Assembly: GCA_039680575.1 (NCBI GenBank)
Contig: JBDKSP010000069.1
Span: 1 to 15,408 of the forward strand
Reading direction: 5' to 3'
Length of the DNA: 15,408 nt
DNA from: Armatimonadota bacterium
GTDB taxonomy: Bacteria > Armatimonadota > UBA5829 > DTLH01
Shown here: positions 1-15,408 of the stretch, one piece after another
Position numbering within the stretch: position 1 is the first letter of the stretch
How the letters are laid out: each line of letters opens with the position of its first letter
The notes under the pieces: generated by a model
What the model was told of the DNA's origin: nothing
Databases searched by the model: none
The model's input: the letters and a program-made list of their open reading frames with translations, nothing else
Made by a program: the position numbers and the translations under genes

Positions 1-83
1 TCCGCCTTCGCCCACAGAGCATCGTCAACTCGCCAGATTGTTGGCACTCGTTCTTTTTTGGGTTCTGTCGCTGATGTAGTCAT
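1..83 (-). CDS. IS5-family transposase, N-terminal fragment (runs off the window)
   Basis: Hand translation from ATG at 83 gives MTTSATEPKKERVPTIWRVDDALWAKA. This resembles the 'W.V.D.LW..I' start of IS5-family (DUF4096-type) transposases. Not in the ORF track. Confidence 0.75.
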   Translation of the reverse strand, partial: MTTSATEPKKERVPTIWRVDDALWAKA

Positions 84-127
84 ATCAGCACTTTACCCAC
101 TTATTCCCAGTTTTGGGATGCACTCTA
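1..127 (-). mobile_element. IS5-family insertion sequence, left (5') end, truncated by the window start
   Basis: Bases 110-129 (GTTTTGGGATGCACTCTAAG) are the exact reverse complement of 15283-15302. A transposase-like N-terminus starts about 45 bp inside the end. The IR boundary is uncertain by 1-3 bp. Confidence 0.8.
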
Positions 128-186
128 AGGAGTTTCAGGTATTACCTGAAACTCTCCCCGGAAGATTTTCGGCTATAGCCGAAAAT

Positions 187-283
187 CCATAGATTCAGGG
201 TCCATTTTCTTCCTGGATGCTGAGTCAAGCTCAGCATGACGTAGTGTTCGTTCAGCATGATGTTATACCCATCAACCCTGAAC
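187..283 (+). repeat. 97-bp structured palindromic repeat (REP/MITE-like), copy 1
   Basis: 79/97 identical by hand, ungapped, to the reverse complement of 5803-5899. Inner hairpin ATGCTGAG-TCAAG-CTCAGCAT; outer arms TTCAGGG...CCCTGAA. Confidence 0.85.
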
Positions 284-315
284 TTTTGCCAGAGGGAAGG
301 CGTTGATACGGCGTT

Positions 316-594
316 TCAGAATCTGCGGACCTGAAAGTCGTGGAACTCGCCTGTTGCGGGGAGGTAGACGGCTATGACATCTCGAACGTGAGCGCCCATC
401 GGACCTCGTTTCAGCATCTCTTCGAACCTGGTTAGAGCCGGTTCTTCTCCTTCGGCCACGACTTCCACATCACCATTCGGGACATTCCGCACCCAGCCTT
501 TGAGCCCGAGCGACCCCGCACGGGTGATTGCAAAATACCTGTAGCCTACCCCCTGGACTGTCCCCTTGATTACTACACGGAGTCTTCGTTTCAT
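316..594 (-). CDS. acyP: Acylphosphatase
   Basis: 92 aa with signature motifs GTVQGVGYR and GWVRN. Confidence 0.95.
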   Translation of the reverse strand: MKRRLRVVIKGTVQGVGYRYFAITRAGSLGLKGWVRNVPNGDVEVVAEGEEPALTRFEEMLKRGPMGAHVRDVIAVYLPATGEFHDFQVRRF

Positions 595-599
595 TGTTT

Positions 600-1886
600 T
601 TAATCTACAGCTATGAGCATATTGTCATTGCAGACCACGTAGATTGTGCCGTCTGCGCCCATTACAGCGGCTTTGACGCGTGACGCTTTTAGAGGGATCG
701 TCTTTATCAGCTTCCCTGTCCTGGAGTCAATTACCGCAATGTTTTCATCTCTTGCCAGATAAAGCCGATCATTCGACGCGATTATGGGGGACACTTCCCT
801 CGGCTGCCATAAACCCCGTCCAGTCCATTTTACTTTACCGTTAGCAGGGTTGATCGCATATATATTGCTGCCATCGCCTGCATACACTGTGCCGTCAGTC
901 CCTATTGCCGGGCCGTATCCCGCCAGAACATTCTCCGGGAGTTCGGAAGGCTTTCGTAAACGTTTGACCGGAGGAGTGAAGCGCCATTTTTCATTGCCTG
1001 TTTTGTAATCGATGGCTGCTATATAGCCTTCATCAGGGTTGGCGCCATAGAGATATAAGTGATTATTGTCGATAGATATCGATACCGGCCGGCTTTTGAT
1101 ATTTCTCCATTTGACTTTGCCGTTGGATGGGTCCAAAGCAATTGCTCCGCCAACATAGATTGTGCCGTCATTCCCGATTGCAGGGATAGAGCCCTCAACG
1201 CCTCCAAAATCAGTCTGTTTCCAATTTTCCTTGTGCATCCATACGGTTTTTCCGGTATCTCCGTCTACGGCATACACATTGTTGTTCTTGCAAAATACGA
1301 CCTTGTTATCGCGTGTGACAGTCGGAGACGACATATTGATGCAGATCGTAGATGACACACTTTCCGGGATCTTTTTTTCTACGAAGATCCATTTGCGTTT
1401 CCCGGACGCGCTGTCAAGAGCATAGAGATTGCCGTCTATTGAAGGGAAATACACCATGTTGTTGGAACCTACTGCAGGTGTAATAATACCTTTGCAGGGT
1501 CCATAGGAGAGAGAGGAAATATGCGGTATTTTTTGCCAGAATGGTAGATTGTTGACGTTCGATCCCCACTTTACCTTTCCGGTCTTACTGTCGAGCGCAT
1601 AGGCCTTGGCATTCATGCACTGGAAGTAAAGAGTGCCATCCGCACCGATTGCAGGGGACTCGAAAATACGAGACGGCGCATGGTATGTCCATGCGATTTT
1701 GCCCTTGGTGTCTTTTCCGACACCAAAATAGCTGTTTTGGACATTCCCGCCATACTTCCACCAGGACTGTTTCTGTGGACCGGAGGGCGCAACTTTTGGA
1801 GGGGCAGCCTTGAACCGCTGAGAGGCCATCCAACCGCCTGCCAGTACTACTACTGCTGCAAAAATCAGAAGTGACTTCTTTTTCAT
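600..1886 (-). CDS. Exported or membrane-anchored PQQ-like (BamB-type) beta-propeller repeat protein
   Basis: N-terminal KKK plus hydrophobic segment. Repeated 'SPAIGxDGTxY...YAxDxxTGKxKW' blades. Confidence 0.85.
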   Translation of the reverse strand: MKKKSLLIFAAVVVLAGGWMASQRFKAAPPKVAPSGPQKQSWWKYGGNVQNSYFGVGKDTKGKIAWTYHAPSRIFESPAIGADGTLYFQCMNAKAYALDSKTGKVKWGSNVNNLPFWQKIPHISSLSYGPCKGIITPAVGSNNMVYFPSIDGNLYALDSASGKRKWIFVEKKIPESVSSTICINMSSPTVTRDNKVVFCKNNNVYAVDGDTGKTVWMHKENWKQTDFGGVEGSIPAIGNDGTIYVGGAIALDPSNGKVKWRNIKSRPVSISIDNNHLYLYGANPDEGYIAAIDYKTGNEKWRFTPPVKRLRKPSELPENVLAGYGPAIGTDGTVYAGDGSNIYAINPANGKVKWTGRGLWQPREVSPIIASNDRLYLARDENIAVIDSRTGKLIKTIPLKASRVKAAVMGADGTIYVVCNDNMLIAVD

Positions 1887-1940
1887 TGAGCGTCTTCTTT
1901 CAAGGTTTCGAGTTCAGAAAAGGGATTGGTGGATGCCGTT

Positions 1941-1974
1941 AATGAAAGCTTCGGCACATAAATTGCGCCGAAGC
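1941..1974 (-). terminator. Possible intrinsic terminator after kdsA
   Basis: Minus-strand hairpin GCTTCGGCGCA-ATTTA-TGTGCCGAAGC followed by TTTCATT (short U tract). Confidence 0.5.
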
Positions 1975-2010
1975 ATGACATAATTCTTTTCTGCTGATGG
2001 TTGAAAGCTG

Positions 2011-2841
2011 TTAGCTGTCCAGCCCTCGCACGGCCTCTTCGATCTTCTTCGCTGAGGACAAGAGTTCTCTTACATCCGACAGTTTCAGCATGGACGCTGC
2101 GTCGGAAAGGGCTTTCTCAGGCTCAGGATGGACTTCCAGGAAGAGTGCGTCCACTCCGACAGCCATTGCGGCGCGTGTCAGGTGAGGGATGAACTCCCTC
2201 GCCCCGCCTGAAGCATTCCCCTGGCCGCCAGGCCGCTGAACACTGTGGGTTGCGTCAAAGATCACGGGATATCCATAGGACCTCATTATCGGAAGTGAGC
2301 ACATATCGACCACCAGCGTATTGTAGCCGAACGAACATCCCCGCTCGGTCAGCATCAGGTTCTGGTTTCCGGTGCTTTCGATCTTCCCAACGATGTTTTT
2401 CATGTCCCAGGGAGCTAAAAACTGGCCTTTTTTCACGTTTATGGGCTTTCCGGTCGATGCAGCGGCGACCAAAAGGTCGGTCTGCCTGCAGAGAAACGCG
2501 GGGATCTGCAAAATATCGACGACTTCTGCCGCCGGGCTGATCTGCCATACCTCGTGAATGTCCGTCAGCACGGGAACACCGACTTTTGCCTTCACTTCAG
2601 CCAGGACTTCAAGCCCTTTGTCGACTCCAAGCCCTCTGGCTGAGTTGACTGACGTCCTGTTGGCCTTATCGAACGACGCCTTGAAGATATACGGTATCCC
2701 CAGCTCTTTTGCGATGACGTTTACTGTCTGTGCGACTTCCAGGCACAAATCCGCCGATTCTATAACGCACGGTCCGGCGATAAGCGCAAACGGCCTGCCT
2801 CCGCCGATATTCACGTTTCCAACTTTAACAACTCTTGTCAT
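2011..2841 (-). CDS. kdsA: Kdo-8-phosphate synthase (2-dehydro-3-deoxyphosphooctonate aldolase)
   Basis: Motifs [48 protein letters not shown]. Cys in GPC suggests the metal-dependent class. Start overlaps the kdsB stop (ATGA). Confidence 0.97.
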
Positions 2842-3590
2842 ACCGATCTCTCCAAAAGCAGCATTCTAACTTTTATAAGGTCTTCTTCCGTATCGACCCC
2901 GATAGGGCTGAAATCCGTCTCGATCATCTGTATCCGCCAGCCGGACTCAAGCGCTCTCAACTGTTCGAGTGACTCTGCCATTTCTAGCGGGGTGGGCTTC
3001 AGTCTGCTGAACTCTTTGAGCGCACGCACGCTGTAGCCGTAAAGCCCGATGTGGCCGTAGGTCTTGAGCGCGGGGTGTTCGTCCCGCACATAGGGGATAG
3101 GCGATCTGGAAAAATACAGCGCTTTGCCTGATGTGTCGGCCACGACCTTTACTAAGTTGGGGTCGGTGGCTTCCGTGCGGCTGACGGGGCGCATAAGGCT
3201 CGTCATTTCAGGCGCATCGGTTTTAAGGAGCGGCCCGATCAACTGGTCTATGGCATCCGGCGGGACCAGCGGCTCATCACCCTGGACATTTATAACGATG
3301 TCATCATCTCTTAGCACGGAAGCGGCCTCGGCCAGCCTGTCCGTGCCTGAACGATGGTCGGGCGAGGTCATAACAGCCTTTCCACCGAATGATGTGACTG
3401 TATTGATGACCTCATTATCCGGGGTGGCTACGAGGACATCGCTTACGCGGGCGGCGCTTTTGGCCCGTTCGTAGACCCGCTGGATCATCGGTTTGCCGCA
3501 GATGTCGGCAAGTGGTTTCCCCGGCAGGCGTGTCGATGCCATCCTCGCCGGGATGATCGCGACGATGCGCGGAACGAAATTAACTTCCAT
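2838..3590 (-). CDS. kdsB: 3-deoxy-manno-octulosonate cytidylyltransferase (CMP-Kdo synthetase)
   Basis: Motifs [52 protein letters not shown]. Confidence 0.97.
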
Positions 3591-4083
3591 AAGATTCCAA
3601 AACCTTCGCTATTATATTTGTGGTGGAACGCCCCTCGACGAGCGGTATTATCACTATTTTCCCGCCGTAGGCCTTGACTGCCTTAGCTTCCGGCAGGTCA
3701 TCGGCTGCATAATCGCCGCCCTTGACATGGATATCCGGCTGAAGGCACGTAATGATCTCTGTCGGCGTGTCCTCGGAAAAGAGAGTTACATAATCGACAC
3801 ATTCAAGCGCCGCTATGAGCTCCGCGCGCTCGAACTCAGGTACCAGCGGGCGGGAATCGCCCTTGAGCCGCTTCACAGTATCGTCCGTGTTGATGGCAAC
3901 TACGAGGCAATCTCCCAAAGACCTGGCAGCCTCGAGATAACGCACATGTCCCACGTGGAGTATATCGAAGCACCCGTTCGTAAACACGACGGTCTTTCCC
4001 GCCGATTTCAGATCACCGATGATATTCTTAAGTACCGACCTTCGTTTGACCTTCGAAGCCGTCGTAAATTTGCTGTTTTGCAC
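3580..4083 (-). CDS. rfaE2: D-glycero-beta-D-manno-heptose 1-phosphate adenylyltransferase (stand-alone RfaE domain II / HldC)
   Basis: Motifs VFTNGCFDILHVGHVRYL, KGDSRP, VKGGDY, STTNII. GTG start overlaps the tsaC stop (TAGTG). Confidence 0.93.
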   Translation of the reverse strand: MQNSKFTTASKVKRRSVLKNIIGDLKSAGKTVVFTNGCFDILHVGHVRYLEAARSLGDCLVVAINTDDTVKRLKGDSRPLVPEFERAELIAALECVDYVTLFSEDTPTEIITCLQPDIHVKGGDYAADDLPEAKAVKAYGGKIVIIPLVEGRSTTNIIAKVLESYGS

Positions 4084-4724
4084 TACTTCCTTACCTCGCC
4101 GACTACCTTTTCGATCTCTTCCACGGGAAGCGCGCCGACCCTGAGTATCCTCGGAATATCTTCAGTCACATCGACCACGGTCGATGCCTGGCCGAACTCT
4201 GCCGGACCTGCGTCCAGTACGACATCGACCTCGCTTCCGACCTGGGCTACCGCATCCGCCGCTGTTTTGGGCTCCAGCCCGCCTGAGATGTTGGCACTCG
4301 TGGCGATGATAGGGCAGCCGTACTCCCAGAGCATCTTAAGCGCAACCGGATGGTTCGGCATCCTGACGCCGATCTTATCGCCGTTTGCAGTCACAATCTC
4401 CGGGATGTTGGCGTGCTTCTTCAGGATAAGGGTGATAGGGCCGGGGAAAAATTTGTCGATCAGTTTTTTACCTGCGTCTGGAATCGACTGCGCGACCTTT
4501 TTTATGTCGTTTTTTTCGCCGATCTGCACAGGGAGCGCTTCGGAAAGCGGCCTGCGCTTGGCTGCGAAGACCTTGGCAGCGGCTCCTGCAGCGAAAGCAT
4601 CGGCAGCGAGCCCGTAGACGGTCTCTGTAGGGAAAATGACGAGTTTTCCCTGCCTGAGCGCCGATGCCGCGCGCTTTATCGCTTCTTCATCTATCCGTTC
4701 CGGGTCGATTTTATATATCAGCAT
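4083..4724 (-). CDS. tsaC: L-threonylcarbamoyladenylate synthase (TsaC/Sua5/YrdC), single domain
   Basis: Motifs FPTETVYGL, AKRRP, PGPIT, GVRMPNHP, TSANISG, STVVD. Confidence 0.95.
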   Translation of the reverse strand: MLIYKIDPERIDEEAIKRAASALRQGKLVIFPTETVYGLAADAFAAGAAAKVFAAKRRPLSEALPVQIGEKNDIKKVAQSIPDAGKKLIDKFFPGPITLILKKHANIPEIVTANGDKIGVRMPNHPVALKMLWEYGCPIIATSANISGGLEPKTAADAVAQVGSEVDVVLDAGPAEFGQASTVVDVTEDIPRILRVGALPVEEIEKVVGEVRK

Positions 4725-4865
4725 AATAACCCTCGGTCTCTAACGACATTCACTATCGCTGATGGACCGGGGGATCCATGCCCCGGTCCCATTCTCCAGG
4801 GCATCCATGCCCCTTGCTGTCTATCGAGCCTCCACTAATCCCATCCCTCTATCCTCGATCCTTCC

Positions 4866-5729
4866 TCAAAGCTCGCAGCTTACAACCCGATCTATGCCTG
4901 CGAGGTCGTTTATTACTTTGGTATTAGTATATCCAATATTCCGGGCGTAAGCTGAAACAGCTTCGCCCTGGCCGATTCCTATCTCCATGTGGACCCACCC
5001 GCCGGGTTTCAGCCACTCGCGGGAGGCTTCGAGTATCTTGCGGTGGTAGTCCATCCCGTCTTCTCCGCCGTCCAGCGCGCCGCGAGGCTCATAATTCGTA
5101 ATCTCCGGCTGCAAGTGATAGATCTCTTCCGATGGTATATACGGAGGGTTCGACACAACTGCGTCAAGTTTGCCTTTTACCTCTTCCGGCAGCGGATCGA
5201 GCAGATCACCTTCCAGTATATCTATCCTGACCTCCACCTGATGCTTTATGGCATTGCGCCGGGCAACTTTCACGGCTTCTGGAGAAATTTCAGTCGCATA
5301 GACCACCGCATCCGGCAGTTCGACTGCGAGTGAGATTGCTATTATCCCGCTCCCGGCGCCGATATCGGCAATAAGAGGATTTTCCCTATCTCGAAGCGTT
5401 GGCAGTGCGGTCTCGATAAGTGTTTCGGTCTCCGGCCTGGGTACGAGCACCGCCGGGGTCACATCAAAAGAAAGCCCCCAGAACTCTTTCTCGCCTGTTA
5501 TATAGGAAAGGGGCTCTCTTTTAGCCCTTCGGGCGGCAAAGTCACGGTAGCGGCAGAGTTCGTCATCGGTAAGCGCCCTTTCTTGATGTGTAATCACATA
5601 GACCCGCTGAGAGCCGATGACATGCGCCATCAGCACTTCTGCATCGAGCTGAGATGTTTCTACCCCCTCCTGCGCGAGTGTACCCATTGCTGACGCGAGT
5701 TCCTGTGCTATCGTGCGAGTCTCCGCCAA
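4866..5729 (-). CDS. prmC: Release factor glutamine N5-methyltransferase
   Basis: Motifs REPLSYITG, VLVPRPETE, DIGAGSG, SNPPYI, ALDGGEDG. Start moved from 5795 to the in-frame TTG at 5729, which has GGAGGT 8 nt upstream. Confidence 0.95.
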   Translation of the reverse strand: MAETRTIAQELASAMGTLAQEGVETSQLDAEVLMAHVIGSQRVYVITHQERALTDDELCRYRDFAARRAKREPLSYITGEKEFWGLSFDVTPAVLVPRPETETLIETALPTLRDRENPLIADIGAGSGIIAISLAVELPDAVVYATEISPEAVKVARRNAIKHQVEVRIDILEGDLLDPLPEEVKGKLDAVVSNPPYIPSEEIYHLQPEITNYEPRGALDGGEDGMDYHRKILEASREWLKPGGWVHMEIGIGQGEAVSAYARNIGYTNTKVINDLAGIDRVVSCEL

Positions 5730-5802
5730 TACGCTAAACCTCCGAACAATCCCCGCATAGTATACCACTTTTAGCTGCCGGTATTCAGCCATCATGGTAA
5801 GG

Positions 5803-5899
5803 GTTCAGAGTTGATGAGTACAACATCATTCCGAATTATCACAACGTCATTCCGGACTTGATCCGGAATCCAGGAAGAAAATGGACTCTGAATCTATGG
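5803..5899 (-). repeat. 97-bp structured palindromic repeat (REP/MITE-like), copy 2
   Basis: Inverted copy of 187-283. Inner hairpin ATTCCGGA-TCAAG-TCCGGAAT; outer arms TTCAGAG...CTCTGAA. Confidence 0.85.
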
Positions 5900-6099
5900 G
5901 GCGAGTTTCAGGGTGACGTGCTTCCATGATGACGTGTTGGTTATTGGGGATGATATATAATTTCACAAGAGTGAACTGTTACATCGAATTGGGAAGAGAA
6001 GTTGTGAATAGAAAGGGGTTGAGATATGAGGGACAATGGTGTGAATTTCCACCACTCATCCCTCATCCCTCATTTTCTGTCCCTGAATCTGTAATTACC

Positions 6100-6912
6100 C
6101 TATGGAGTCGGTACGGACATTGGCTCCGTGGGTGTATCAGGCGCAGCTGGTGTCTCCGGTGTACTCGGCGTTGGTGTCACAGTAGGACTTGGTTGAGTTA
6201 CCGGTTCGGTTGGTCCGGCTCCGGCAGGAGTTGTCTCTGCTGATTCCGAGGCAGCCGGTGCCTTTGGGGTTAGCTGGACATTCGAGAATGTCACGTCGAT
6301 AGGGACAGTAAACCGGTCTCCCAGGTTGCGGTCGTGCCGCAGAATATCCGGTGCGGGTGCGTGAACCCTGATCGAGTAGCTGCCCGAAGTCGGAATGGAG
6401 AAGTTCGCGCCGTAATGGTCAGCCATCGGATGCCAGAAGTAGGAAAGCTGCTTCGATTGCACTGTATTTCCGGACTGATCGATAACATCGAGTGTGGGCG
6501 AGACCGGAATCGGTTTGCCGGTGAGAGAATCCAACACAACTACTTCGATGTGCTGAGTCTCGCCTGGCGCCGGCGGCACCCATGTAAGCTGGCCGTTTAT
6601 CGTCTGATAGTAGCCTTTCGGGGGATTTACCATATAGGCCACCTGGTAATCACCCACAGTGCTCTGTCCACCGGATTGTTTGATGGAATTCATCATCATC
6701 TCTTGGGACTCACCCATGTTATCCACATGTCCGCGCTGCTGGATCACTGAGATCGGCGCAATCGAGATAGCTGCTGCAGCCTCAGCAGGACCAGCACCAG
6801 TCGGTTGGGTTGTCGGCGTGGTCTTTTTCTTTCCGTTAGCCCAAACGCCTGCAGCCATCAGCAATACCAAAAGCATAATAATCGCCAAAAAAACAATTCT
6901 ACTTCCCTTCAT
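6100..6912 (-). CDS. Exported P19/FetP/Tpd-like iron/copper-binding protein with Pro/Thr-rich N- and C-terminal tails
   Basis: Signal peptide. Motifs HIEV, WHPMADHYGANF and P..LRHD match the Fe2+ transport protein family pattern. RBS GAGGAGG. Confidence 0.75.
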   Translation of the reverse strand: MKGSRIVFLAIIMLLVLLMAAGVWANGKKKTTPTTQPTGAGPAEAAAAISIAPISVIQQRGHVDNMGESQEMMMNSIKQSGGQSTVGDYQVAYMVNPPKGYYQTINGQLTWVPPAPGETQHIEVVVLDSLTGKPIPVSPTLDVIDQSGNTVQSKQLSYFWHPMADHYGANFSIPTSGSYSIRVHAPAPDILRHDRNLGDRFTVPIDVTFSNVQLTPKAPAASESAETTPAGAGPTEPVTQPSPTVTPTPSTPETPAAPDTPTEPMSVPTP

Positions 6913-7181
6913 TGCAGATTAGCCTCCTCATTCATACCTTGCTTCCGCAAAATTGCCGTAACTGGATACAAAACTACCCATCATTAATCGCCTGTCAAAC
7001 TATAGGTTTTTGGCTGTTCAGTTAACAACCAATTGTATACAGGCCAAACTGGGCTTATCCGCTTCGTGGATGAGACTTAACCGAAAATCTGTAGATAAGG
7101 GGATTCGGGATCCGGGATTCGAAATTGATGGTGAATATTTGCAATGTCTTTCCTAAATCCTTCCCAATAACTGCAGATTGA

Positions 7182-7210
7182 TTGACTCAGTATCACGCGG
7201 TGGGTAAAAT
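7182..7210 (+). promoter_or_regulatory. Sigma70-type promoter for the downstream secreted protein gene
   Basis: TTGACT (7182-7187), 17-bp spacer, TAAAAT (7205-7210). Confidence 0.6.
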
Positions 7211-7302
7211 CTAATTATAGATTCTCGGTTATTGCCAAAATCTTCCTGGAGAGTTTCATTTGTCACTTGAAACTCCTCAAGAGATTATCTGGAGGTTATA
7301 TA

Positions 7303-9123
7303 TTGTCGAATTTAACTCGCCGCGCTCTGTTACCGGCTTTTACCTGCGTGGCTCTTGTTGTTATCACAGGTTTATCAGCTCACGCCCAGTTCGTCCCGCA
7401 GGTGGACTACGCGGCAAGAGGCAGTGAGGCTGTAGTCACGATAAATGGCCGCGTCGCGGTCCGGTTCAAAGCATCTAATGCCAGGTTAACCCCGCTCGAG
7501 CGAGCGAAATTGACTGCAGGCAGGCTGAAACCTCTCGCGACCGGCGGGTGGAAAGCGATTACTGTAAAATCCACAAGCACGAAGCGTTCTCAAGTTGTTG
7601 TCAACGACAAGGTAATCTGTATAGCCACTGCGGCGGATGCATCCGCCAGTAAAACATCCGCACAGACACTCAGCGAAATCTGGGTAAGGAATATGCGACG
7701 GCTTTTCTCCATGCCGCCAATAACACTGACTCCCGCTGAGATCACAATACCCGAAAACGAAAAGCGGATGACTGTTATCAGCGGGGCGGCGCAGGGTGCG
7801 ATAACCGTTTCCGACGGCAATCCATCAATAGCGGTATCATCCTTCGACTCTGCTCACCGGTCCGTAGTTGTCACAGGCAGGGCGGTCGGGCGTTCCACTG
7901 TAGAGGTAAGCTGCCAGGGCTGCAGATGTACACTTGTGGTCAACGTAAAGCGATATGCAGGAAGGCTGACCGGTATAAAGACTATTGAAGTCACCGGGGA
8001 GCCCGCGCCGGACTGGCTGCTTACGAAAGTGGCGAAGAAGGCTGCGTCTTCAGTCGTGGCGCTCGAACCGGGAGCCACGGCAACATACGGCAGACCGAAG
8101 ATAGCATGCGATTCTCTTGGAAAGGGTAAAAGTGTACGCGCCCTCGTTCCAGTAAGAGCCAGCGGTTCCAAATTCATCACTACAGATATGTTTGCGCCGG
8201 TCGAGATTGTTAACAGACCGCTGTCTCACAAATTGGCTGTAGACCTGTTTTACAGCAACGATCCCGAGCGGCTTACGCAGTACGGGACACTTTTTACCGG
8301 CAAGCTGTCTTTCGATGAAAAGACCAGGCTCTTTTACCACCACCAGAACATGATGGGTAAGCGTGTGAGGCTTGCAGTCGAGCTTTTGAACGCTGGGGAT
8401 ACGGAAGCCGGAGTCCAGGCGATAAGCGGGATCGGCCACCCCATAGTAGATACGGTGGTTGTTGGCTACATGGCTGGAATGGACTTCATCCGGGACCACC
8501 TGCGCAACGTGGGAATGGTCTATCGTATCCCGCCGAGATCAAAAATCGTCGTCTACGCTGATAACCTGAGCCATAACATCACCGCAAGCGGCATTATAGA
8601 CCTAAGACAGTTCGCGGGAGGAGATGTATATGTTAAGGTCTCTGCAAACCCTCCGCGCCTGGGTCAATTATCGGATGGACAGACTGCATCGATCAACGAT
8701 GCGGACATACCCACGTATTTGTCCGAGCATGTATACATGACCCCGACCAAGCAGATGGAAGCGAATTATGTCATAGGCGAGCGCTGGGAATTTATCAGGA
8801 TTGGAAAATATGCGATCAAAGATGCAGCCGACAAGAAGCAGCTTTTCGGCAACTACGGCGTGATCTACAACATCAACATCCGCATCGAAAACCCGACCGC
8901 CGATGCCCGGACTGTTAAGATCATTTTTGATCCTACTGCAGGTCCCGCATCAGGGATTTTCGTCATCGGCGGCAAGATAATAGGCATAAAGATAGTCGCG
9001 CCGCCGAAGGAGTTCCAGATAACGACGGTCCGGGTCCCTGCCGGGCAGGCGAGAGAGCTGACAATAACCACAATGCCGCTTGGAGGCTCGGCCTATCCTG
9101 CATCGATTGTGATAAGACCGTAA
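7303..9123 (+). CDS. Large secreted hypothetical protein with an Ig-like / pilus-secretin-N-like segment and a C-terminal domain of unknown function
   Basis: Long ORF (track start 7267). In-frame TTG at 7303 has GGAGG 7 nt upstream. Signal peptide ends AHA. Segment 'ITVSDGNPSIAV...VVVTGRAVGRSTVEV' looks Ig-like. Function not recognised. Confidence 0.7.
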   Translation: MSNLTRRALLPAFTCVALVVITGLSAHAQFVPQVDYAARGSEAVVTINGRVAVRFKASNARLTPLERAKLTAGRLKPLATGGWKAITVKSTSTKRSQVVVNDKVICIATAADASASKTSAQTLSEIWVRNMRRLFSMPPITLTPAEITIPENEKRMTVISGAAQGAITVSDGNPSIAVSSFDSAHRSVVVTGRAVGRSTVEVSCQGCRCTLVVNVKRYAGRLTGIKTIEVTGEPAPDWLLTKVAKKAASSVVALEPGATATYGRPKIACDSLGKGKSVRALVPVRASGSKFITTDMFAPVEIVNRPLSHKLAVDLFYSNDPERLTQYGTLFTGKLSFDEKTRLFYHHQNMMGKRVRLAVELLNAGDTEAGVQAISGIGHPIVDTVVVGYMAGMDFIRDHLRNVGMVYRIPPRSKIVVYADNLSHNITASGIIDLRQFAGGDVYVKVSANPPRLGQLSDGQTASINDADIPTYLSEHVYMTPTKQMEANYVIGERWEFIRIGKYAIKDAADKKQLFGNYGVIYNINIRIENPTADARTVKIIFDPTAGPASGIFVIGGKIIGIKIVAPPKEFQITTVRVPAGQARELTITTMPLGGSAYPASIVIRP

Positions 9124-9346
9124 ATCTGCCTTGAGCGCATCTGAGGCAATTGCGCTGAGTTAATCCGAGATCGATAGCCCGTTGTCGAAGTGGTTATTAT
9201 CCGGTAATCACAGACACGGAGGAGGAAAAACGTCTTGTCGATGCCGGAGAGGTGCTTTTTATGGTACACTGATTGGCACTCTCCATTAATCTGTGCCTGA
9301 ACGGACAACCATTTTGGACTTAATGCAACGACCTCAGCATTTGCCG

Positions 9347-9375
9347 TTGATTTTATGGTGTGAATGCGGTATAAT
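9347..9375 (+). promoter_or_regulatory. Sigma70-type promoter of ssrA
   Basis: TTGATT (9347-9352), 17-bp spacer, perfect TATAAT (9370-9375), 20 bp upstream of the mature tmRNA 5' end. Confidence 0.8.
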
Positions 9376-9395
9376 AATGACGAAACTGAATACGT

Positions 9396-9744
9396 GGGGG
9401 CGAATGGAGTCGACAGGGAAGCAGCGGCTTTGGTTGCGGGCCGAGGCGCCGCTGGCCTCGTAAAAAGCGGCAAGCCAATAAACGGCACAAATCAGTACGC
9501 ACTCGCAGCTTAATTAGCTAGCGCATCCGCCCGGTCTATTTCGGCGTGACCGGATACGGGTGTCAATAGAGCCGAATTGCTCCTTCCTATACGTTCGTAA
9601 CGGGAAGAGGACACAATACGAACTGGCTTGAAAGAATCCCGCCTGTGGGAGTCTGACAAGTGAGAATTAAAACGCTGGATACGCTCGTAGAAGCCTCTGT
9701 CAGCTCTTCTTTGGACCCGGGTTCGAGTCCCGGCGCCTCCACCA
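9396..9744 (+). ncRNA. ssrA: tmRNA (transfer-messenger RNA), tag peptide (A)GTNQYALAA
   Basis: 5' GGGGGCG pairs with 3' CGCCTCC-ACCA, including the G3-U alanine identity wobble. T-arm CCGGG-TTCGAGT-CCCGG. Tag frame 9484-9513 (GGC ACA AAT CAG TAC GCA CTC GCA GCT TAA) follows ATAAAC. Length 349 nt. Confidence 0.97.
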
Positions 9745-9970
9745 ACATCATTGAGACTTACATGTCTCTTGTTGTTCATGTATATGAACTGTGCCACGCT
9801 CATATTTTGACGATGTGAGCGTGGTTTTGCTTTATAGGCTGCCCAAGTCTGTGACAAACTCCTTTGGACTGGGTTTAGGCGGATGTTACCTCAAAACTTG
9901 CTCAACCGGTTCTCTTTCGGGCTGTTTTTCTCTGTTTTCTCCGGTGGATTCTCTGCTCAAGTCCAAAAGA
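9736..9970 (+). repeat. att core (CCTCCACCA) plus conserved left arm, copy 1
   Basis: About 83% identical by hand alignment (39 differences in 235) to 13227-13460. Confidence 0.92.
9794..9833 (+). terminator. Intrinsic terminator downstream of ssrA, carried in the left arm
   Basis: CCACGCTCATAT...ATGTGAGCGTGG stem followed by TTTTGCTTT. Confidence 0.75.
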
Positions 9971-10012
9971 CCTCCGTTCGCAAGAGATAGTAGGTAAGCG
10001 CAAGCTACTTCG

Positions 10013-10024
10013 AGTCTGTAGACT
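10013..10024. promoter_or_regulatory. Candidate C-protein operator (C-box-like dyad)
   Basis: AGTCT-GT-AGACT inverted repeat about 70 bp upstream of the controller gene. GACT/AGTC half-sites are typical of C-boxes. Confidence 0.35.
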
Positions 10025-10091
10025 TAACGGCTGCAGAATTGAGAGAATACAGTTGAGGTGTCAGCCCGCATAGCGCTAAGGAGAAAAGCCA

Positions 10092-10322
10092 ATGAGAAGA
10101 GAATCACAGACGCTCCGATTTGTGCTGGCCCACAACGTCCGACGCCTGCGAAGCCAGCTGGGAGTATCGCAAGAGGAACTTGCCGACATGTGCGGACTCC
10201 ACCGCACGTATGTTGGCTCAGTTGAGCGGTGTGAGCGCAATGTTACGCTCAGCACTATCGAGGTGTTAGCGCAAGGGTTGGGAGTGAGTCCGGACAGTCT
10301 GTTGAGAGAGGGGAATGGCTAA
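10092..10322 (+). CDS. XRE-family HTH controller (C) protein of the R-M system
   Basis: 76 aa with SQEELADMCGLHRTYVGSVERCERNVTL. RBS AAGGAG. Its stop directly abuts the REase GTG. Confidence 0.9.
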   Translation: MRRESQTLRFVLAHNVRRLRSQLGVSQEELADMCGLHRTYVGSVERCERNVTLSTIEVLAQGLGVSPDSLLREGNG

Positions 10323-11375
10323 GTGAAAGATCTGCATACGCCGCTTGCATACGCGGACAATATCCGGCAGAGTGGATTGGATATATACGCGTCGATTGAC
10401 GTAGGGGACCCGCAGTTGTGGATACCAGCCCCCGAAATGGAATTCCTTCTGAACAGCGCACTGAAGGGCACAAGCCTCGCTGGACTTCCCCTGCGTACCC
10501 GCTCCAAAGTGGTTAAGGCCGCCGTCTGTGAAGCGATGGGATACACTGTGCCGCGTAGCTTTCGGAAGACCCAACCGCGCTTCCCCGGCCAGTGTCTGGA
10601 CACCTATGTACAGAAGTCATCCAACCTGCAGATATGGAATGAGGAGATCGCCCCTAACCGAAGATACGCCATCATCAAGGTGGCTCAGGATGATACCATT
10701 GTCAAAGTGAAAGTGGTGACCGGAGATACTTTGGCCTTACTCGATACGACCGGCACGCTCACCCGCAAGTATCAGGCACGCATTACACCAGGAGACGCAG
10801 ACGTGGAACTAGTCAGCGATGTCGACACCGAGAACCTGGGGCGGATCACTTGCCAATACCGTAACACGCCGGGATTCGCGGTCAGCCCAACAGCACATCC
10901 TTCAGTCGGTCAGTTGATGCCAATAGAACTTGTCTGTCGTAAACTTGAGCAGTTGGTAGGCAACACTTTTGTCGATGCAGGAATTGACCAAGAACGGAAC
11001 CGTGGTGGCGAACTACACCGCCGGGTATGTGCAGCCCTGGGTTACCAGCGTCACCAAGACGACGGAGCGTTTCCTGATATACGCCATCAACTGATCGAGG
11101 TAAAACTGCAGACATCGCCTACTATTGATCTGGGCCTGGTTAGCCCAGCCTCAGAGGAACCCCTTGATACGCCACGGTTGGAAAATGTACAAGCTCGACA
11201 TTGCGATGTCCGATACGTTGTGTTCTATGCCGAAAGAAACAACGCGAATGTAACTCTTACCAAGCTGTATGTCTCCACTGGTGAACGATTTTTCGCGCGA
11301 TTTGTGCAGTTTGGCGGCTTGGTTACAAACGCGAAGCTGCAAATACCGCTGCCAGCTTCCTTCTTTGAAGACTAA
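10323..11375 (+). CDS. Putative Type II restriction endonuclease (PD-(D/E)xK), possibly ClaI/BseCI-like
   Basis: 350 aa with FPDIRHQLIEVKLQ (PD...EVK). Lies downstream of a C gene and converges on an N6-adenine MTase. Confidence 0.78.
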   Translation: MKDLHTPLAYADNIRQSGLDIYASIDVGDPQLWIPAPEMEFLLNSALKGTSLAGLPLRTRSKVVKAAVCEAMGYTVPRSFRKTQPRFPGQCLDTYVQKSSNLQIWNEEIAPNRRYAIIKVAQDDTIVKVKVVTGDTLALLDTTGTLTRKYQARITPGDADVELVSDVDTENLGRITCQYRNTPGFAVSPTAHPSVGQLMPIELVCRKLEQLVGNTFVDAGIDQERNRGGELHRRVCAALGYQRHQDDGAFPDIRHQLIEVKLQTSPTIDLGLVSPASEEPLDTPRLENVQARHCDVRYVVFYAERNNANVTLTKLYVSTGERFFARFVQFGGLVTNAKLQIPLPASFFED

Positions 11376-13093
11376 CTAAAGACGCTCCAAACGAGCCTAT
11401 CGAGCTCTTGTTCAAGCACCAGCCCCTCATCAGATGGGGTCAATTCATAGATGCGTTTAGCGAGCGCTACCATTTGTCTCGACTCCAGGCGCGCCGGGTC
11501 TGGTACAGGGAACTGCTCCACATACTGGGTCATGAAACGTCGTCGTCCGGCATATAGCTTGTTGTTGAACTTCTTGTCATAGAATGCCTCGGTAAAAGAC
11601 GAGTTCGCAACAGCCAATGCCAGCCACAGAATGTCTGGATCAGATGAAGTGGAGCATAGCCAATAGCAGTCGCCGTTTACTACTGATCCTCCTAGATCCA
11701 TCCAGAATGTAGGATGCTCACTGATGTCGCGGAATGCTATCTTTGGCGATTGCCAAACCGCTGGATCCTGAGGAACCCATATCTCGTACCAGTTGCGGCC
11801 TGCCGCTATGACATACTCTCGCGCCTCCAGAGTTGTCCGGTGCTTTTCAAGATACTCTGCGCTCCGGGGATATTCGGCAAGATCAACCGGATAGCGCCGA
11901 CCGTCTATCGTCTTGTGTGTATATAGAATTTGCCGTTGTTCGTCAGTTTCCAAAGGGCGGAACCGACGCGCAACGTGGTGTGTGATCAATGGCATCAGAA
12001 GTTCGGGCACGTCATCGCCCAATATCTCATGCCAATCCTTACGTATGAACACTTTGTCAGCTGTAGTTTTTACACCAACGCGTATGTCGCCGATATTCCC
12101 AAACGTGCACCAAGTATTTGTGGCTACCCTATCTAGCCAAGCCGAACTAGATTCCGTCTCGATACGCCATACATCCTCTGTTGATTTACCAATATGCAAG
12201 TAACCGTGCTGTACGTGAAAGCGCTCACCGCTGGTCAGTTGTATATTGCCCCGCTCCTGCATTGCCTCTATTGCGTCACGGCATATTATATCGGGATCAA
12301 GGAAATCGCTTGAATAAATGTTACTGAATAGCGTACGCTCCTGAGGCTCAAATCCAGCATGCTTACGGCTCAACAGCAAGACAGCAGGCAGCACCGCAGC
12401 CGAAAACAAGCGCGTATCTCCGAAATCCCAAATGTGAAGAGGATCAAATTGCTGAAGTATTTCGTCTCTGACCGCCGCGCCCGATCTTGTGGTCATAAAG
12501 CGGTTCGACACTATGATACCAGCTATTGCTCCAGGGTTCAGTATGCGGCCGATGCCACACAGGAACGCGTGGTAAAGATCAATACGCCCGTTCAGTCTAA
12601 ATCCCTCTGCAATACTCTGCGCTGTCTCCGCACCGAGAATTTGGGTCCGCACATAGGGTGGATTTGCAATAAGCACATCGTAGTGTGTGGAATCAGCGGA
12701 CCTGAATAGGCTCATCTGGCTGTTGTCGTAATCTGAAAGCACGACGTCAAGGAAGCTCCTGCAGCATAGTTGAAGCTCTATCAGCGGGAAAACACTTTGG
12801 ATACGCTTTCGGGCTAGCTCAAGAGCCGAACTGCTCGTATCAAATCCAGATGCTGATAAATGCTGGTAGCCGTGTTCAAGTAGCTCGTGCACCAGAGCCA
12901 GAATGAGTTCGCCGTCCCCCGCAGCAGGATCGACAATGAAAAGCCTTGCGTTCTTGTCGCGTTCTCCGAGAGCCGCAACAATCTGCTTCGCAACAAATGC
13001 AGCGAGAGCAGGCGGAGTGTAGTGTGCCCCTTCCGCCTTCACATCGTCCACATCTCTATATCTGGCTACGCCAGCCACTCTCTGAGTTGCCAA
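11372..13093 (-). CDS. Gamma-class N6-adenine DNA methyltransferase, similar to M.BseCI/M.BanIII (ATCGAT)
   Basis: Motif order GAHYTP, DPAAGDG, NPPY, then a C-terminal TRD. ANPPYVRTQILGAE, GRIDLY, SNRFMTT and AAVLPA match my recollection of M.BseCI. TTG start with GAGG RBS; 4-bp stop overlap with the REase. Confidence 0.9.
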   Translation of the reverse strand: MATQRVAGVARYRDVDDVKAEGAHYTPPALAAFVAKQIVAALGERDKNARLFIVDPAAGDGELILALVHELLEHGYQHLSASGFDTSSSALELARKRIQSVFPLIELQLCCRSFLDVVLSDYDNSQMSLFRSADSTHYDVLIANPPYVRTQILGAETAQSIAEGFRLNGRIDLYHAFLCGIGRILNPGAIAGIIVSNRFMTTRSGAAVRDEILQQFDPLHIWDFGDTRLFSAAVLPAVLLLSRKHAGFEPQERTLFSNIYSSDFLDPDIICRDAIEAMQERGNIQLTSGERFHVQHGYLHIGKSTEDVWRIETESSSAWLDRVATNTWCTFGNIGDIRVGVKTTADKVFIRKDWHEILGDDVPELLMPLITHHVARRFRPLETDEQRQILYTHKTIDGRRYPVDLAEYPRSAEYLEKHRTTLEAREYVIAAGRNWYEIWVPQDPAVWQSPKIAFRDISEHPTFWMDLGGSVVNGDCYWLCSTSSDPDILWLALAVANSSFTEAFYDKKFNNKLYAGRRRFMTQYVEQFPVPDPARLESRQMVALAKRIYELTPSDEGLVLEQELDRLVWSVFS

Positions 13094-13174
13094 GTCGTGT
13101 CCTCACTTGTCCTCTAGGTATACCACAATGATACTTGCAGTCATCATAATAGTCAAGTGAACCATGACCACTCC

Positions 13175-13235
13175 GCCTTTTGGACCTGAGAGAAAACTGC
13201 CGTCACTTTTTGCGGAGGGCACGCTTCCTCCACCA
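13175..13235 (+). repeat. Conserved right arm plus att core, copy 1
   Basis: 52/61 identical by hand to 15223-15282. Ends TTCCTCCACCA. Confidence 0.9.
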
Positions 13236-13460
13236 TCATCCCAGAGACTTAATAGTCTCTTGCTGTTCATAATCCCGAAATGTGCCACGCTCATGTTTTG
13301 ACGATGTGAGCGTGGTTTTGCTTTGTACTCCGCCTGAGTCTGTGACAAACTCCTTTGGACTGGGTTTGAGCGGATGTTACCCAAAACTTGCTCAACCGGT
13401 TCTCTTTCGCGTAGTATTTCTCTGTTTTCTCTTAGTAGTTCTCTGGGCAAGTCCAAAGGA
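13227..13460 (+). repeat. att core plus conserved left arm, copy 2
   Basis: Direct repeat of 9736-9970. Confidence 0.92.
13285..13324 (+). terminator. Second copy of the left-arm terminator
   Basis: CCACGCTCATGT...ATGTGAGCGTGG followed by TTTTGCTTT. Confidence 0.7.
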
Positions 13461-13649
13461 TGAGATGATAAGGTAACAGCAGGCGGACTTTGTGCATCTG
13501 ATATAATTGTGATATTGTTCGGTGTGGCTTCGAACTGCCATACAAGGCAGCAAAAGCCGAGGTGGGTGAATGGAAAATGATTGTGCAATATGGCACGTTT
13601 CTTGCACAGCTTGTTTATCTAGCAAACATAATGAAAGGCGACTTAATAA

Positions 13650-14366
13650 ATGCATTCTCTATATAAAATCAAACTTTTGTTGAGCCAGATTGTATTAACA
13701 GCCATTGTCGCATTGACTGCGATATCTATGCCGATATACGCACAAGCCCAGGCTACTTCCAGAACAACGCCGGTTGAAGTGAAGAACCCGGTTTCTATTG
13801 ATCAAAGTGGCAATACCGTGAATGCTCAGCAGAGCGGGACATGGAGTGTTGGAATCGCAGGCATACCGAGCGTGAACGTATCGAATACACCCGGGGTGAC
13901 AATTACAAATACGCCCAACGTAAATTTAATTAATTCACCCACTGTGCAGATAGACGAAAAATGCAATTCCGTAAAAACTGCAACGCAATCCTCAGCGATG
14001 AAGTTATGGAACGAAAACGTGTTCGTAGCACCGTCTGGCACTATTTGGAGCAATAATATATGCTGCAAAGGCTACAAGGAAGTGAGAATTGTAATCAAGC
14101 TCGGCCCATATAGCAATGATCTTACAAAAGTGTATGTAAATGTTTATATATTCACACCTGATGGTTTCAAAACGTTCCTCGGTAAAATTGTATTTTCATC
14201 ACCAACCGTAAAATCCATAAGCCAGGGCGATCTTGAATATGGCGCAGATTCATGCATTTTTACAGTGCCTGTCATGTCGGACAATATGGCAATTCAAATT
14301 TACAATGGTGATGTTAAGCAGCTTCCTATATATAGCAGGGATACTTGGGCATATCTGGTCAATTAA
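13650..14366 (+). CDS. Secreted hypothetical protein with short V/T/N/P-rich repeats
   Basis: 238-aa ORF with signal peptide ending AQA. Repeats VNVSNTP/VTITNTP/VNLINSP. GAAAGG upstream. Confidence 0.75.
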   Translation: MHSLYKIKLLLSQIVLTAIVALTAISMPIYAQAQATSRTTPVEVKNPVSIDQSGNTVNAQQSGTWSVGIAGIPSVNVSNTPGVTITNTPNVNLINSPTVQIDEKCNSVKTATQSSAMKLWNENVFVAPSGTIWSNNICCKGYKEVRIVIKLGPYSNDLTKVYVNVYIFTPDGFKTFLGKIVFSSPTVKSISQGDLEYGADSCIFTVPVMSDNMAIQIYNGDVKQLPIYSRDTWAYLVN

Positions 14367-14368
14367 CA

Positions 14369-14509
14369 TGGTTTTGCTTTGTTCGAGTCTGTGACAAACT
14401 CCTTTGGACTGGGTTGATGCGGTTGTTACCCCAAAACGCTCTCAACCGGTTCTCTTTCGGGCAGTTCTTCTCTGTTTTGTCCATTGGCGTCTGTGGATCA
14501 GTCCAGAGG
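14369..14509 (+). repeat. Third, partial copy of the left arm (distal ~140 bp)
   Basis: Contains the invariant blocks AGTCTGTGACAAACTCCTTTGGACTGGGTT (14386-14415) and CTCAACCGGTTCTCTTTCG (14441-14459). Ends AGTCCAGAGG. Confidence 0.9.
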
Positions 14510-14526
14510 TTCCGTCCCTCACGTCG

Positions 14527-14556
14527 TTGACCAGTTTGTCCGGTCGACAGTATCAT
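14527..14556 (+). promoter_or_regulatory. Possible promoter for the acetyltransferase gene
   Basis: TTGACC, 18-bp spacer, TATCAT. Confidence 0.35.
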
Positions 14557-14612
14557 ATAGGCGTCTGAAGCTTGGCTTTGCGCCGGTTCTCTCGATTTGC
14601 GAGGTGTCAAAA

Positions 14613-15163
14613 ATGACGGAAAAGAAAAATCATATGCTGGTATGTTATACCAACCCGGCGATCCCGAACTTGTTGCAGACCGTGATATTACCGTAAGAAA
14701 ATTATACGATTACAACAATCTGAACCCTTTGGACCGTGACGTGCGTCGAGTGGCTATACATGGTTTGTTAGGTAAGGTCGGAGATAACTGCGTTGTGGAA
14801 CAACCGCTTTTCTGCACTTATGGATATAATACCACGGTGGGCGACAATTTTTTTCTCAACGTCAACGGAAAACTTATGGACAGTGGGAAAATTACGATTG
14901 GAAACAATGTGTTTATTGCCTCTAATGTTTCTATTATAACGGAAGAACATGCAATGGATGTTGAACAACGTCTGGCAGGATTAGAATATGCTTATCCTGT
15001 CACGATAGGCGACAATGTCTGGATTTGCACAGGAGCTATAATTTTGCCGGGCGTGACAATCGGCGAAGACAGTGTAATCGGCGCGGGTAGTGTTGTGACA
15101 AAGGATATACCACCGAAAAGCTTAGCTGTCGGCAACCCTTGCAAGGTAATCCGCAAACTTTAA
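14613..15163 (+). CDS. maa: Maltose/galactoside O-acetyltransferase family protein (hexapeptide repeat), apparently frameshifted at codon 4
   Basis: Motifs YGYNTTVGDNFF, PVTIGDNVWI, PGVTIG, GAGSVVTKDIP, VGNPCKVIR. The RBS-preceded ATG at 14613 (MTEK) is one base out of frame with the body; the track ORF uses TTG 14597. Confidence 0.85.
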
Positions 15164-15181
15164 TTTAAATAGATTGTTGGT

Positions 15182-15216
15182 GTATCGGGATTTGAACGCG
15201 GTGGAAATCCCGATAC
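15182..15216. terminator. Hairpin after maa (possible terminator or stability element)
   Basis: Perfect 12-bp stem GTATCGGGATTT/AAATCCCGATAC, but no U tract. Confidence 0.45.
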
Positions 15217-15222
15217 GAAACA

Positions 15223-15282
15223 GCCTTTGGACTTGAGAGAAAACCGCCGTCACTTTTTGTGGTAGGAACAATTCCTCCACCA
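15223..15282 (+). repeat. Conserved right arm plus att core, copy 2 (candidate attR)
   Basis: Direct repeat of 13175-13235. CCTCCACCA at 15274-15282. Confidence 0.9.
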
Positions 15283-15284
15283 CT

Positions 15285-15408
15285 TAGAGTGCATCCCAAA
15301 ACCCAAGTGATGCGCTTGATCATGATAATATCTGCCTGTATATGATTAGGCAGCAGGCAAACTGTATAAGAGCAAGGTAGTTCTCCGGTATGCGCTCATA
15401 TCTCACAA
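15285..15408 (-). mobile_element. IS5-family insertion sequence, right (3') end, truncated by the window end
   Basis: Terminal IR matches 110-129 in inverted orientation. Contains a transposase C-terminus. Confidence 0.8.
15320..15408 (-). CDS. IS5-family transposase, C-terminal fragment
   Basis: Hand translation VRYERIPENYLALIQFACCLIIYRQILS* matches the 'RYEK...NY.A...A..II' tail of IS5-family DDE transposases. Confidence 0.8.
   Translation of the reverse strand, partial: VRYERIPENYLALIQFACCLIIYRQILS

Follow-up and report, generated by a model that had tools for sequence, protein, structure and literature searches.

What is the inverted repeat that brackets the gene content of two units stacked at the tmRNA gene of an Armatimonadota bacterium (class UBA5829)? 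The units lie on contig JBDKSP010000069.1 of assembly GCA_039680575.1, of which the 15,408 nucleotides analysed are referred to here as the window. An initial annotation offered two options for the repeat, which is built on the motif TTTGGAC: a second recombination system acting on the cargo, or arm-type sites that define the minimal element. The data fit the second option, with arm-type sites that bind a protein, while the first option lacks support. The two units encode no recombinase, and their arms match those of a prophage family that carries genes for a DUF2924 protein, a large serine recombinase and a ParB-like protein. Judged from sequence comparison, the inverted repeat is probably the outermost binding site for a protein of this three-gene module, and would mark the minimal arm that is kept.

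The tmRNA gene (9396..9744; ARAGORN, Rfam RF00023) is the integration target. It ends in the 9-bp core CCTCCACCA (9736..9744), which is attL of unit 1, and the same core recurs at 13227 and 15274, giving units of 3491 and 2047 bp. Both units follow one plan, with the arms on the forward strand: a left arm of about 230 bp (terminator, direct TTTGGAC, TTCTCT repeats, inverted TTTGGAC), cargo, and a 59-bp right arm in which TTTGGAC, an inverted TTCTCT and the core succeed one another. Left arm 1 comprises a proximal part (9745..9833, terminator hairpin at 9793-9825) and a distal part (9847..9969), the latter with TTTGGAC in direct orientation at 9863, TTCTCT at 9910, 9928 and 9949, and TTTGGAC inverted at 9961, at the tip. 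Right arm 1 (13177..13235, core 13227-13235) is followed directly by left arm 2 (13236..13459, terminator 13284-13316, distal part 13338-13459, TTCTCT at 13400, 13418, 13427 and 13439), and the two together form an attP-like junction. Right arm 2 (15224..15282) ends in the core at 15274-15282. Annotation of the cargo by Pfam and PADLOC revealed no recombinase gene in either unit.

The motif pairs were confirmed at their positions. In unit 1, CTCAAGTCCAAAAG (9956-9969) and CTTTTGGACCTGAG (13177-13190) are complementary at 13 of 14 positions, in unit 2 the pair 13448-13459 and 15224-15235 is complementary at 12 of 12, and arm homology between the window units ends within 1-3 bp of these motifs. 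TTTGGAC occurs 12 times in the window, compared with 2.0 expected, and this number was reached by none of 200 shuffles. Matching within a unit is not special, as the left motif of unit 1 pairs equally well (13/14) with the right motif of unit 2. Two features had been overlooked: an extra direct TTTGGAC about 100 bp inside each left arm (9863, 13354), and a third, core-less copy of the left arm within unit 2 (14369-14509). A second motif pair, described as lying just outside the first, is present in both arms, but is really the TTCTCT repeat, of which a full left arm has 3-4 copies and the right arm a single inverted one. The tmRNA gene carries a TTTGGAC of its own at 9710-9716, 26 bp 5' of the core; this copy is absent from tRNA-Ala targets and was not used as support. 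The sequence GGAGG-N8-CCTCCACCA, found at 13211-13235 and in other right arms, could fold into an acceptor-like mini-helix with a CCA end; its 8-bp spacer is unlike that of the tmRNA and varies among units.

Where the arms come from is indicated by a family search, which led to a locus (L109) where the tmRNA gene and a left arm are followed, on the opposite strand, by an ORF of 135 amino acids, a large serine recombinase gene (PF00239, PF07508, PF13408) and a DUF2924 gene (PF11149). This layout occurs at 7 tmRNA loci, some of them with cargo between arm and module, and the left arms of the window align with the attL arms of the tmRNA prophages that bear the module. In genome G045, a single contig, the tmRNA gene is followed by a left arm, cargo, the module, phage genes (replication, head, tail), further cargo, and finally a right arm plus core about 94 kb from the tmRNA gene. 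The neighbours of the parent recombinase gene, within prophage, encode DUF2924, the 135-residue protein and an M15 peptidase. These parent prophages, and not the units, show the combination typical of phages AcaML1 and WO, in which the left end encodes a large serine recombinase together with DUF2924 and a small subunit. In a recombinase tree of 17 rows, the 7 tmRNA-linked enzymes cluster with one further enzyme that has the same arm (support 97/90). Eight recombinases for which the linked target is another tRNA or is not recognised are separate from this clade, and the AcaML1 enzyme is a long branch outside it. The arm-type sites proposed initially therefore stand in so far as the same motif occupies the same places in the attL and attR arms of autonomous prophages, but what is linked to them is a module with a large serine recombinase and not a lambda-type integrase. 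Tandem pairs of family recombinase modules were also seen at two loci of genome G027 (L146, L156), which has 9 matches.

It had further been suggested that left and right motif variants (AAAAG/CTTTT versus AAAGG/CCTTT) covary from unit to unit. Thirteen left-right pairs were assembled, of which 9 have both motifs and 4 were removed because one motif was degenerate; unit 2 of the window was paired with its nearest left arm, the core-less orphan. The variable base matched in 6 of the 9 pairs, against a permutation mean of 4.8 (p=0.33), whereas p was 0.08 with two flanking bases and 0.07 for a 14-bp window. AAAAG forms the left end in three units, and just one of these three, that of the window, has CTTTT at the right. 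Per-unit covariation is not supported in this small sample; given the 14-bp result and the few units, a weak form of it might still exist.

Covariation is seen instead between lineages. The left arms of prophages at tmRNA, tRNA-Asn, tRNA-Pro, tRNA-Gln and tRNA-Glu have TTCTCT repeats and spacing in common, and each group has its own 10-bp motif in three copies per left arm, two direct and one inverted. The direct copies are 74-76 bp apart in 8 of 9 parent arms (one was mis-anchored by the script). Matches to the own motif average 8.6 and 7.9 of 10 positions, the first figure partly by construction, compared with 5.4 and 5.9 for the motifs of other targets. The first motif copy in the arm of a tRNA-Glu prophage on contig C77 of this assembly fits the Pro motif better than its own. 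The three copies change together with the recombinase lineage, as would be expected for binding sites of an element-encoded protein.

The edges of the cargo bear on a different explanation, in which a second recombination at the TTTGGAC tips captures cargo or exchanges it between arms, making the units a cassette system with active loading. Beginning 3 bp outside the right motif, conservation across 73 flanks drops abruptly from 0.90-1.0 to at most 0.48, and past window-type left arms (15 flanks) it is at most 0.53; 32 of the 73 right flanks are unique. Boundaries at the motif, as initially proposed, are thus sharp on average in the larger set, but 15 parent-type left arms remain alike for 45 bp further, and 41 of the 73 right flanks fall into six single-linkage families with shared upstream sequence, some members being weakly linked. 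The orphan arm and the arm of a unit in genome G002 have about 70 bp of promoter region in common past the motif, before different genes follow. The 14-bp match speaks for loading at the tips and the variable base against it, as does the distal left arm missing from 20 of 28 units (see below). The reading is kept alive by a locus on C77 (L041, G000:C77:57855-66150), where an intact right arm-core-left arm junction with cargo, including ORFs of 1337 and 752 amino acids, lies inside the tRNA-Glu prophage between two diverged copies of a primase 3' end, its right tip abutting one of them; a unit may here hitchhike in a phage of another lineage. The same sharp edge arises from selection to retain the outermost binding site, and cargo capture at the tips is on the whole improbable.

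Several other features were observed at the arm edges. Palindromic hairpins lie about 8-10 bp 5' of the right motif at L062, L063, L064, L069, L070, L073, L085, L099 and L179 and in the window, where a 12-bp inverted repeat, also present in other units, stands just 5' of right arm 2 (15182..15216, no strand assigned). Hairpin arms of at least 8 bp occur in 10 of 72 right flanks, with 0.7 expected, and the hairpins may be REP-like. TTGAC lies within 50 bp past the left tip in 6 of 15 window-type left arms (0.6 expected), so that cargo often begins with a promoter just beyond the arm. At L057, L078, L080, L082 and L188 a common leader of at least 60 bp precedes the right arm, with a -10-like TACAAT directed into the arm, and at least three of these five have a partial second right arm further upstream. 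Upstream of the right arm of L078 lies a large cargo (53-9608) whose ORFs by eye are methylase-like, 1186-residue NTPase-like and ThiF/JAB-like; it matches part of L057, which is in a different family, at 94% identity. Core-less partial right arms at L042 (G000:C46:22257-22295), L064, L069 and L085 begin exactly at the motif and have a ragged end after 27-41 bp.

The size of the arms raises the question of the enzyme. Serine integrase att sites are described as typically no longer than 50 bp, whereas lambda attP spans about 240 bp, long arms being tied to tyrosine integrases (PMC4111918, in the part available). The units have the short core of canonical serine integrases, but differ from what that part describes in that long arms go with a serine recombinase; the long attP with repeated direct and inverted sites resembles that of lambda. 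The arms might accordingly form a lambda-like attP that a tyrosine integrase of the prophage recognises, with the serine module a mere neighbour. At about 280 bp and with repeated sites, they have the dimensions of a tyrosine attP, and parent prophages do encode tyrosine recombinases, namely a XerC-like integrase and a small protein with the N-terminal domain. However, no cognate tyrosine integrase lies beside att as in lambda-type systems: the recombinase nearest to attL in the 7 tmRNA loci is that of the serine module, the serine recombinase tree groups by target, and AcaML1 has the module with no tyrosine integrase in its annotation. An attP read by a tyrosine enzyme is therefore highly improbable. 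Loci L041-L099 and the window contain no tyrosine integrase ORF, apart from one in mid-prophage on C77; this was considered as the cognate enzyme and rejected, in view of its position and of relatives that occur in no unit.

Within a junction the two motifs point towards each other, with about 280 bp between these inverted ends, and so right arm, core and left arm might also be a module resembling a miniature inverted-repeat transposable element (MITE), with TTTGGAC as its terminal repeats; alternatively, cargo might invert between the repeats. Target duplication is lacking, at 0-2 bp in 11 of 12 junctions (the other has 5 bp), and just 4 of 12 junctions have ends that agree at the variable base. 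The MITE reading was dropped, no target-site duplications flanking the terminal repeats. As to inverted or swapped cargo, the contigs of five sequencing runs contained no excision, inversion or swap joints and no strand-changing joints that would place cargo in both orientations, as in a shufflon, rare forms being dropped from contigs. Both versions of this idea are scarcely credible.

Arms of this type are a feature of the class. Searches of 61 related genomes recovered the left arm in 15 and the right arm in 18. A sample of the phylum comprised 401 genomes, of which 28 have the right arm; 21 of these 28 belong to the class, which contributed 53 genomes to the sample. Of 12 records with the exact right motif, 10 bear the title Armatimonadota or Armatimonadetes and two that of uncultured bacterium. 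A metagenome pattern scan gave 12 loci, of which 5 have no match to the arm profiles, 2 have weak matches only and 2 repeat known loci. The right-arm motifs have no exact match in IMG/VR, and are absent from five viral records with the recombinase, all of them 20-55% complete. Core-to-core segments shorter than 12 kb number 28, a count biased by their definition via the right arm; they measure 0.4-4.1 kb, and the arrays to which they belong are anchored at tmRNA or tRNA-Ala or have no visible anchor. Queried by tblastn (E 0.001) with the serine recombinase, the partner proteins of the module and 11 tyrosine recombinases, none of the 28 gave a match. The cargo of unit 1 was not found in the 52 other genomes of the class.

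Such units could also be decayed relics of prophages, never mobile as small units, with arms that persist by chance or owing to recent origin. Many arms are indeed truncated or degenerate, and no matching helper was seen in this assembly. By contrast, the right arm is strongly conserved across families despite differing cargo: of 81 right arms counted in the fetched loci, after removal of two duplicate loci, 54 carry the exact motif and 73 carry it with at most one mismatch, and the distance from motif to core is 48 bp in 45 of 64. Units also occur at tRNA-Ala. The restriction-modification (RM) cargo of unit 1 was recovered at 91-95% identity in a run from another study, where one contig extends across the right arm as far as the core and continues into different sequence. 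In two further runs (X2, X3) the tmRNA region and unit 2 were covered at about 99% and 9905-12998 was not; this came without a joining contig and was not counted as evidence. That the units are merely dead relics is thus unlikely.

The arms are better explained as binding sites of the serine recombinase module. We propose that a circle carrying right arm, core and left arm (about 280 bp) would recombine with the tmRNA end inside the 9-bp core, and that repeated integration would stack units. The units would derive from prophages through loss of everything between the two cargo zones that parents have inside each arm, and they would excise or integrate only when a helper prophage of the tmRNA type supplies the proteins in trans. 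The predicted reader of TTTGGAC is the ParB-like protein of 135 residues. Its model (pLDDT 73) aligned in Foldseek with ParB/Noc DNA-binding domains at probability 1.00, with an rmsd of 2.0 Å over 66 residues, the Pfam domain HTH_ParB matched weakly in 9 of 32 cases, and an atlas neighbour has it in 24% of members.

A number of observations weigh against this proposal. The distal left arm is recognisable in 8 of the 28 units only; many of the other 20 may hence be dead relics, or else the left motif is dispensable. G045 is the sole parent prophage observed with both ends, and the tyrosine recombinases of the parents offer a second candidate enzyme. The one close family recombinase of this assembly (96.8% complete, 122 contigs) is encoded on C77 at tRNA-Glu; it is 54% identical, lies outside the tmRNA clade, groups with the tRNA-Glu/Pro lineage and has a different motif, and hence the matching helper is not seen. 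The fold match of the ParB-like protein has E 0.09, above E 0.001, and the model of the DUF2924 protein (pLDDT 73, pTM 0.38) has no match in the PDB at E 0.001 or better. Pattern searches for right arms of the tRNA-Pro, tRNA-Glu and tRNA-Gln lineages gave chance-like matches only, and the arms of AcaML1 do not score with the arm profiles of the window.

Among known systems, the ssrA islands of Dehalococcoides (DsiB/DsiA) are described, in the available part of PMC3146451, as tandem insertions at the tmRNA 3' end with a reverse-strand serine recombinase by attL. Their repeat is 20 bp long, they insert in the T-loop, and their module of six genes includes DsiA, ParB and Mom; 15 islands lack an integration module. 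As far as that part goes, tandem integration at tmRNA, a reverse-oriented serine recombinase beside attL in autonomous members and the existence of members that lack the integration module are common to both. The units described here differ in their 9-bp core at the far 3' end, with host-specific T-stem bases, in a parent that is a prophage with DUF2924 and a ParB-like protein and no six-gene DsiA module, and in arms of 59 and about 230 bp with repeated motifs in units of 0.4-4.1 kb.

Cis-mobilizable elements (CIMEs), presented in the part of PMC5704250 that was available as decayed integrative conjugative or mobilizable elements, have lost integration and transfer genes, keep attL and attR, and stand in tandem at a tRNA-type gene. 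The window units are likewise bounded by attL and attR (cores at 9736, 13227 and 15274, arms homologous to prophage ends), and their annotated cargo contains no integration or transfer genes, the search for transfer genes having covered the window units alone and recombinase matches being absent from all 28. They depart from the CIMEs of that account in their prophage parent, in cassettes of one to three genes and in a right arm highly conserved across the class.

Phage AcaML1 (JX507079) is likened to the parent prophages by the same module (Gp4, Gp3 and Gp2 with 39, 53 and 42% identity) and by a left end with TTCTCTG repeats and a terminator; it targets tmRNA with a 10-bp repeat and is called inducible, and the portion of PMC3826726 that was available does not describe derived mini-units or arm motifs. 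Recombinases of phage WO are 42-43% identical to the parent recombinase. The units are best classed as CIME-like cassette arrays with unusually long, modular arms of a serine integrase family. They are a real class-wide feature, and a variant of the islands that stand in tandem at tmRNA. The literature searched, which was covered in part and without supplements, yielded no account of such arms or arrays.

The cargo of unit 1 is a type II RM system with its controller: a C protein gene (10092..10322, forward; PADLOC PDLC03665, E 2e-25), a restriction endonuclease gene (10323..11375, forward; PDLC03565, E 7e-140) and a methyltransferase gene (11372..13093, reverse; PDLC03226, E 9e-184, and Pfam). 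Unit 2 encodes a 238-residue protein with no family match (13650..14366) and a maltose O-acetyltransferase-like hexapeptide protein (14597..15163; PF12464, PF00132), both on the forward strand; a one-base indel difference was seen at the start of the latter gene (14597-14620) in other runs. Between them lies the orphan distal left arm (14369..14509, forward), which has no core and no right arm preceding it, and which is likely to result from fusion of two units through deletion. Its context is repeated in an independent sequencing run, and it resembles the arm of the G002 unit. The sigma70-like promoter 3' of it (14527..14556, forward) is found in the G002 unit as well, with different genes.

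Directly 3' of the last core, a multicopy repeat (15283..15408, forward) runs to the contig end. Its first 20 bp occur in 5 copies in the assembly, mostly at contig ends, and contig depth is 274 compared with about 36; it is likely to be the end of an insertion sequence. A copy was also noted at 110-129 of the window. Since the contig breaks in this repeat, 126 bp past the last core, the array may continue; no autonomous element adjoins the units within the window. A 105-bp inverted repeat pair (80%), intergenic and 5.5 kb apart, was seen at 187-291 and 5795-5899.

A wider reading is that of an integron-like cassette system throughout the class, in which cassettes of 0.4-4 kb with phage att arms only would be loaded at the TTTGGAC tips, and a helper prophage would excise, package or re-integrate them, with a recombinase that needs two accessory DNA-binding proteins and a lambda-like attP of 280 bp. 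This is a possibility, though a doubtful one; if true, such an att architecture has not been described for serine integrases in the literature searched. The arms provide a testable map of att sites, with lineage-specific motifs, for a three-gene serine recombinase module that is also found in phage AcaML1, has related recombinases in phage WO, and has accessory proteins to which the searches made assigned no function. If the long arms are needed, a motif-rich attP of 280 bp tied to a serine recombinase would be unusual, and the family departs from the short-site rule for serine integrases. For a little-studied class, the arrays point to a route by which defence and other genes may be stacked at tmRNA with no integrase gene in each unit.

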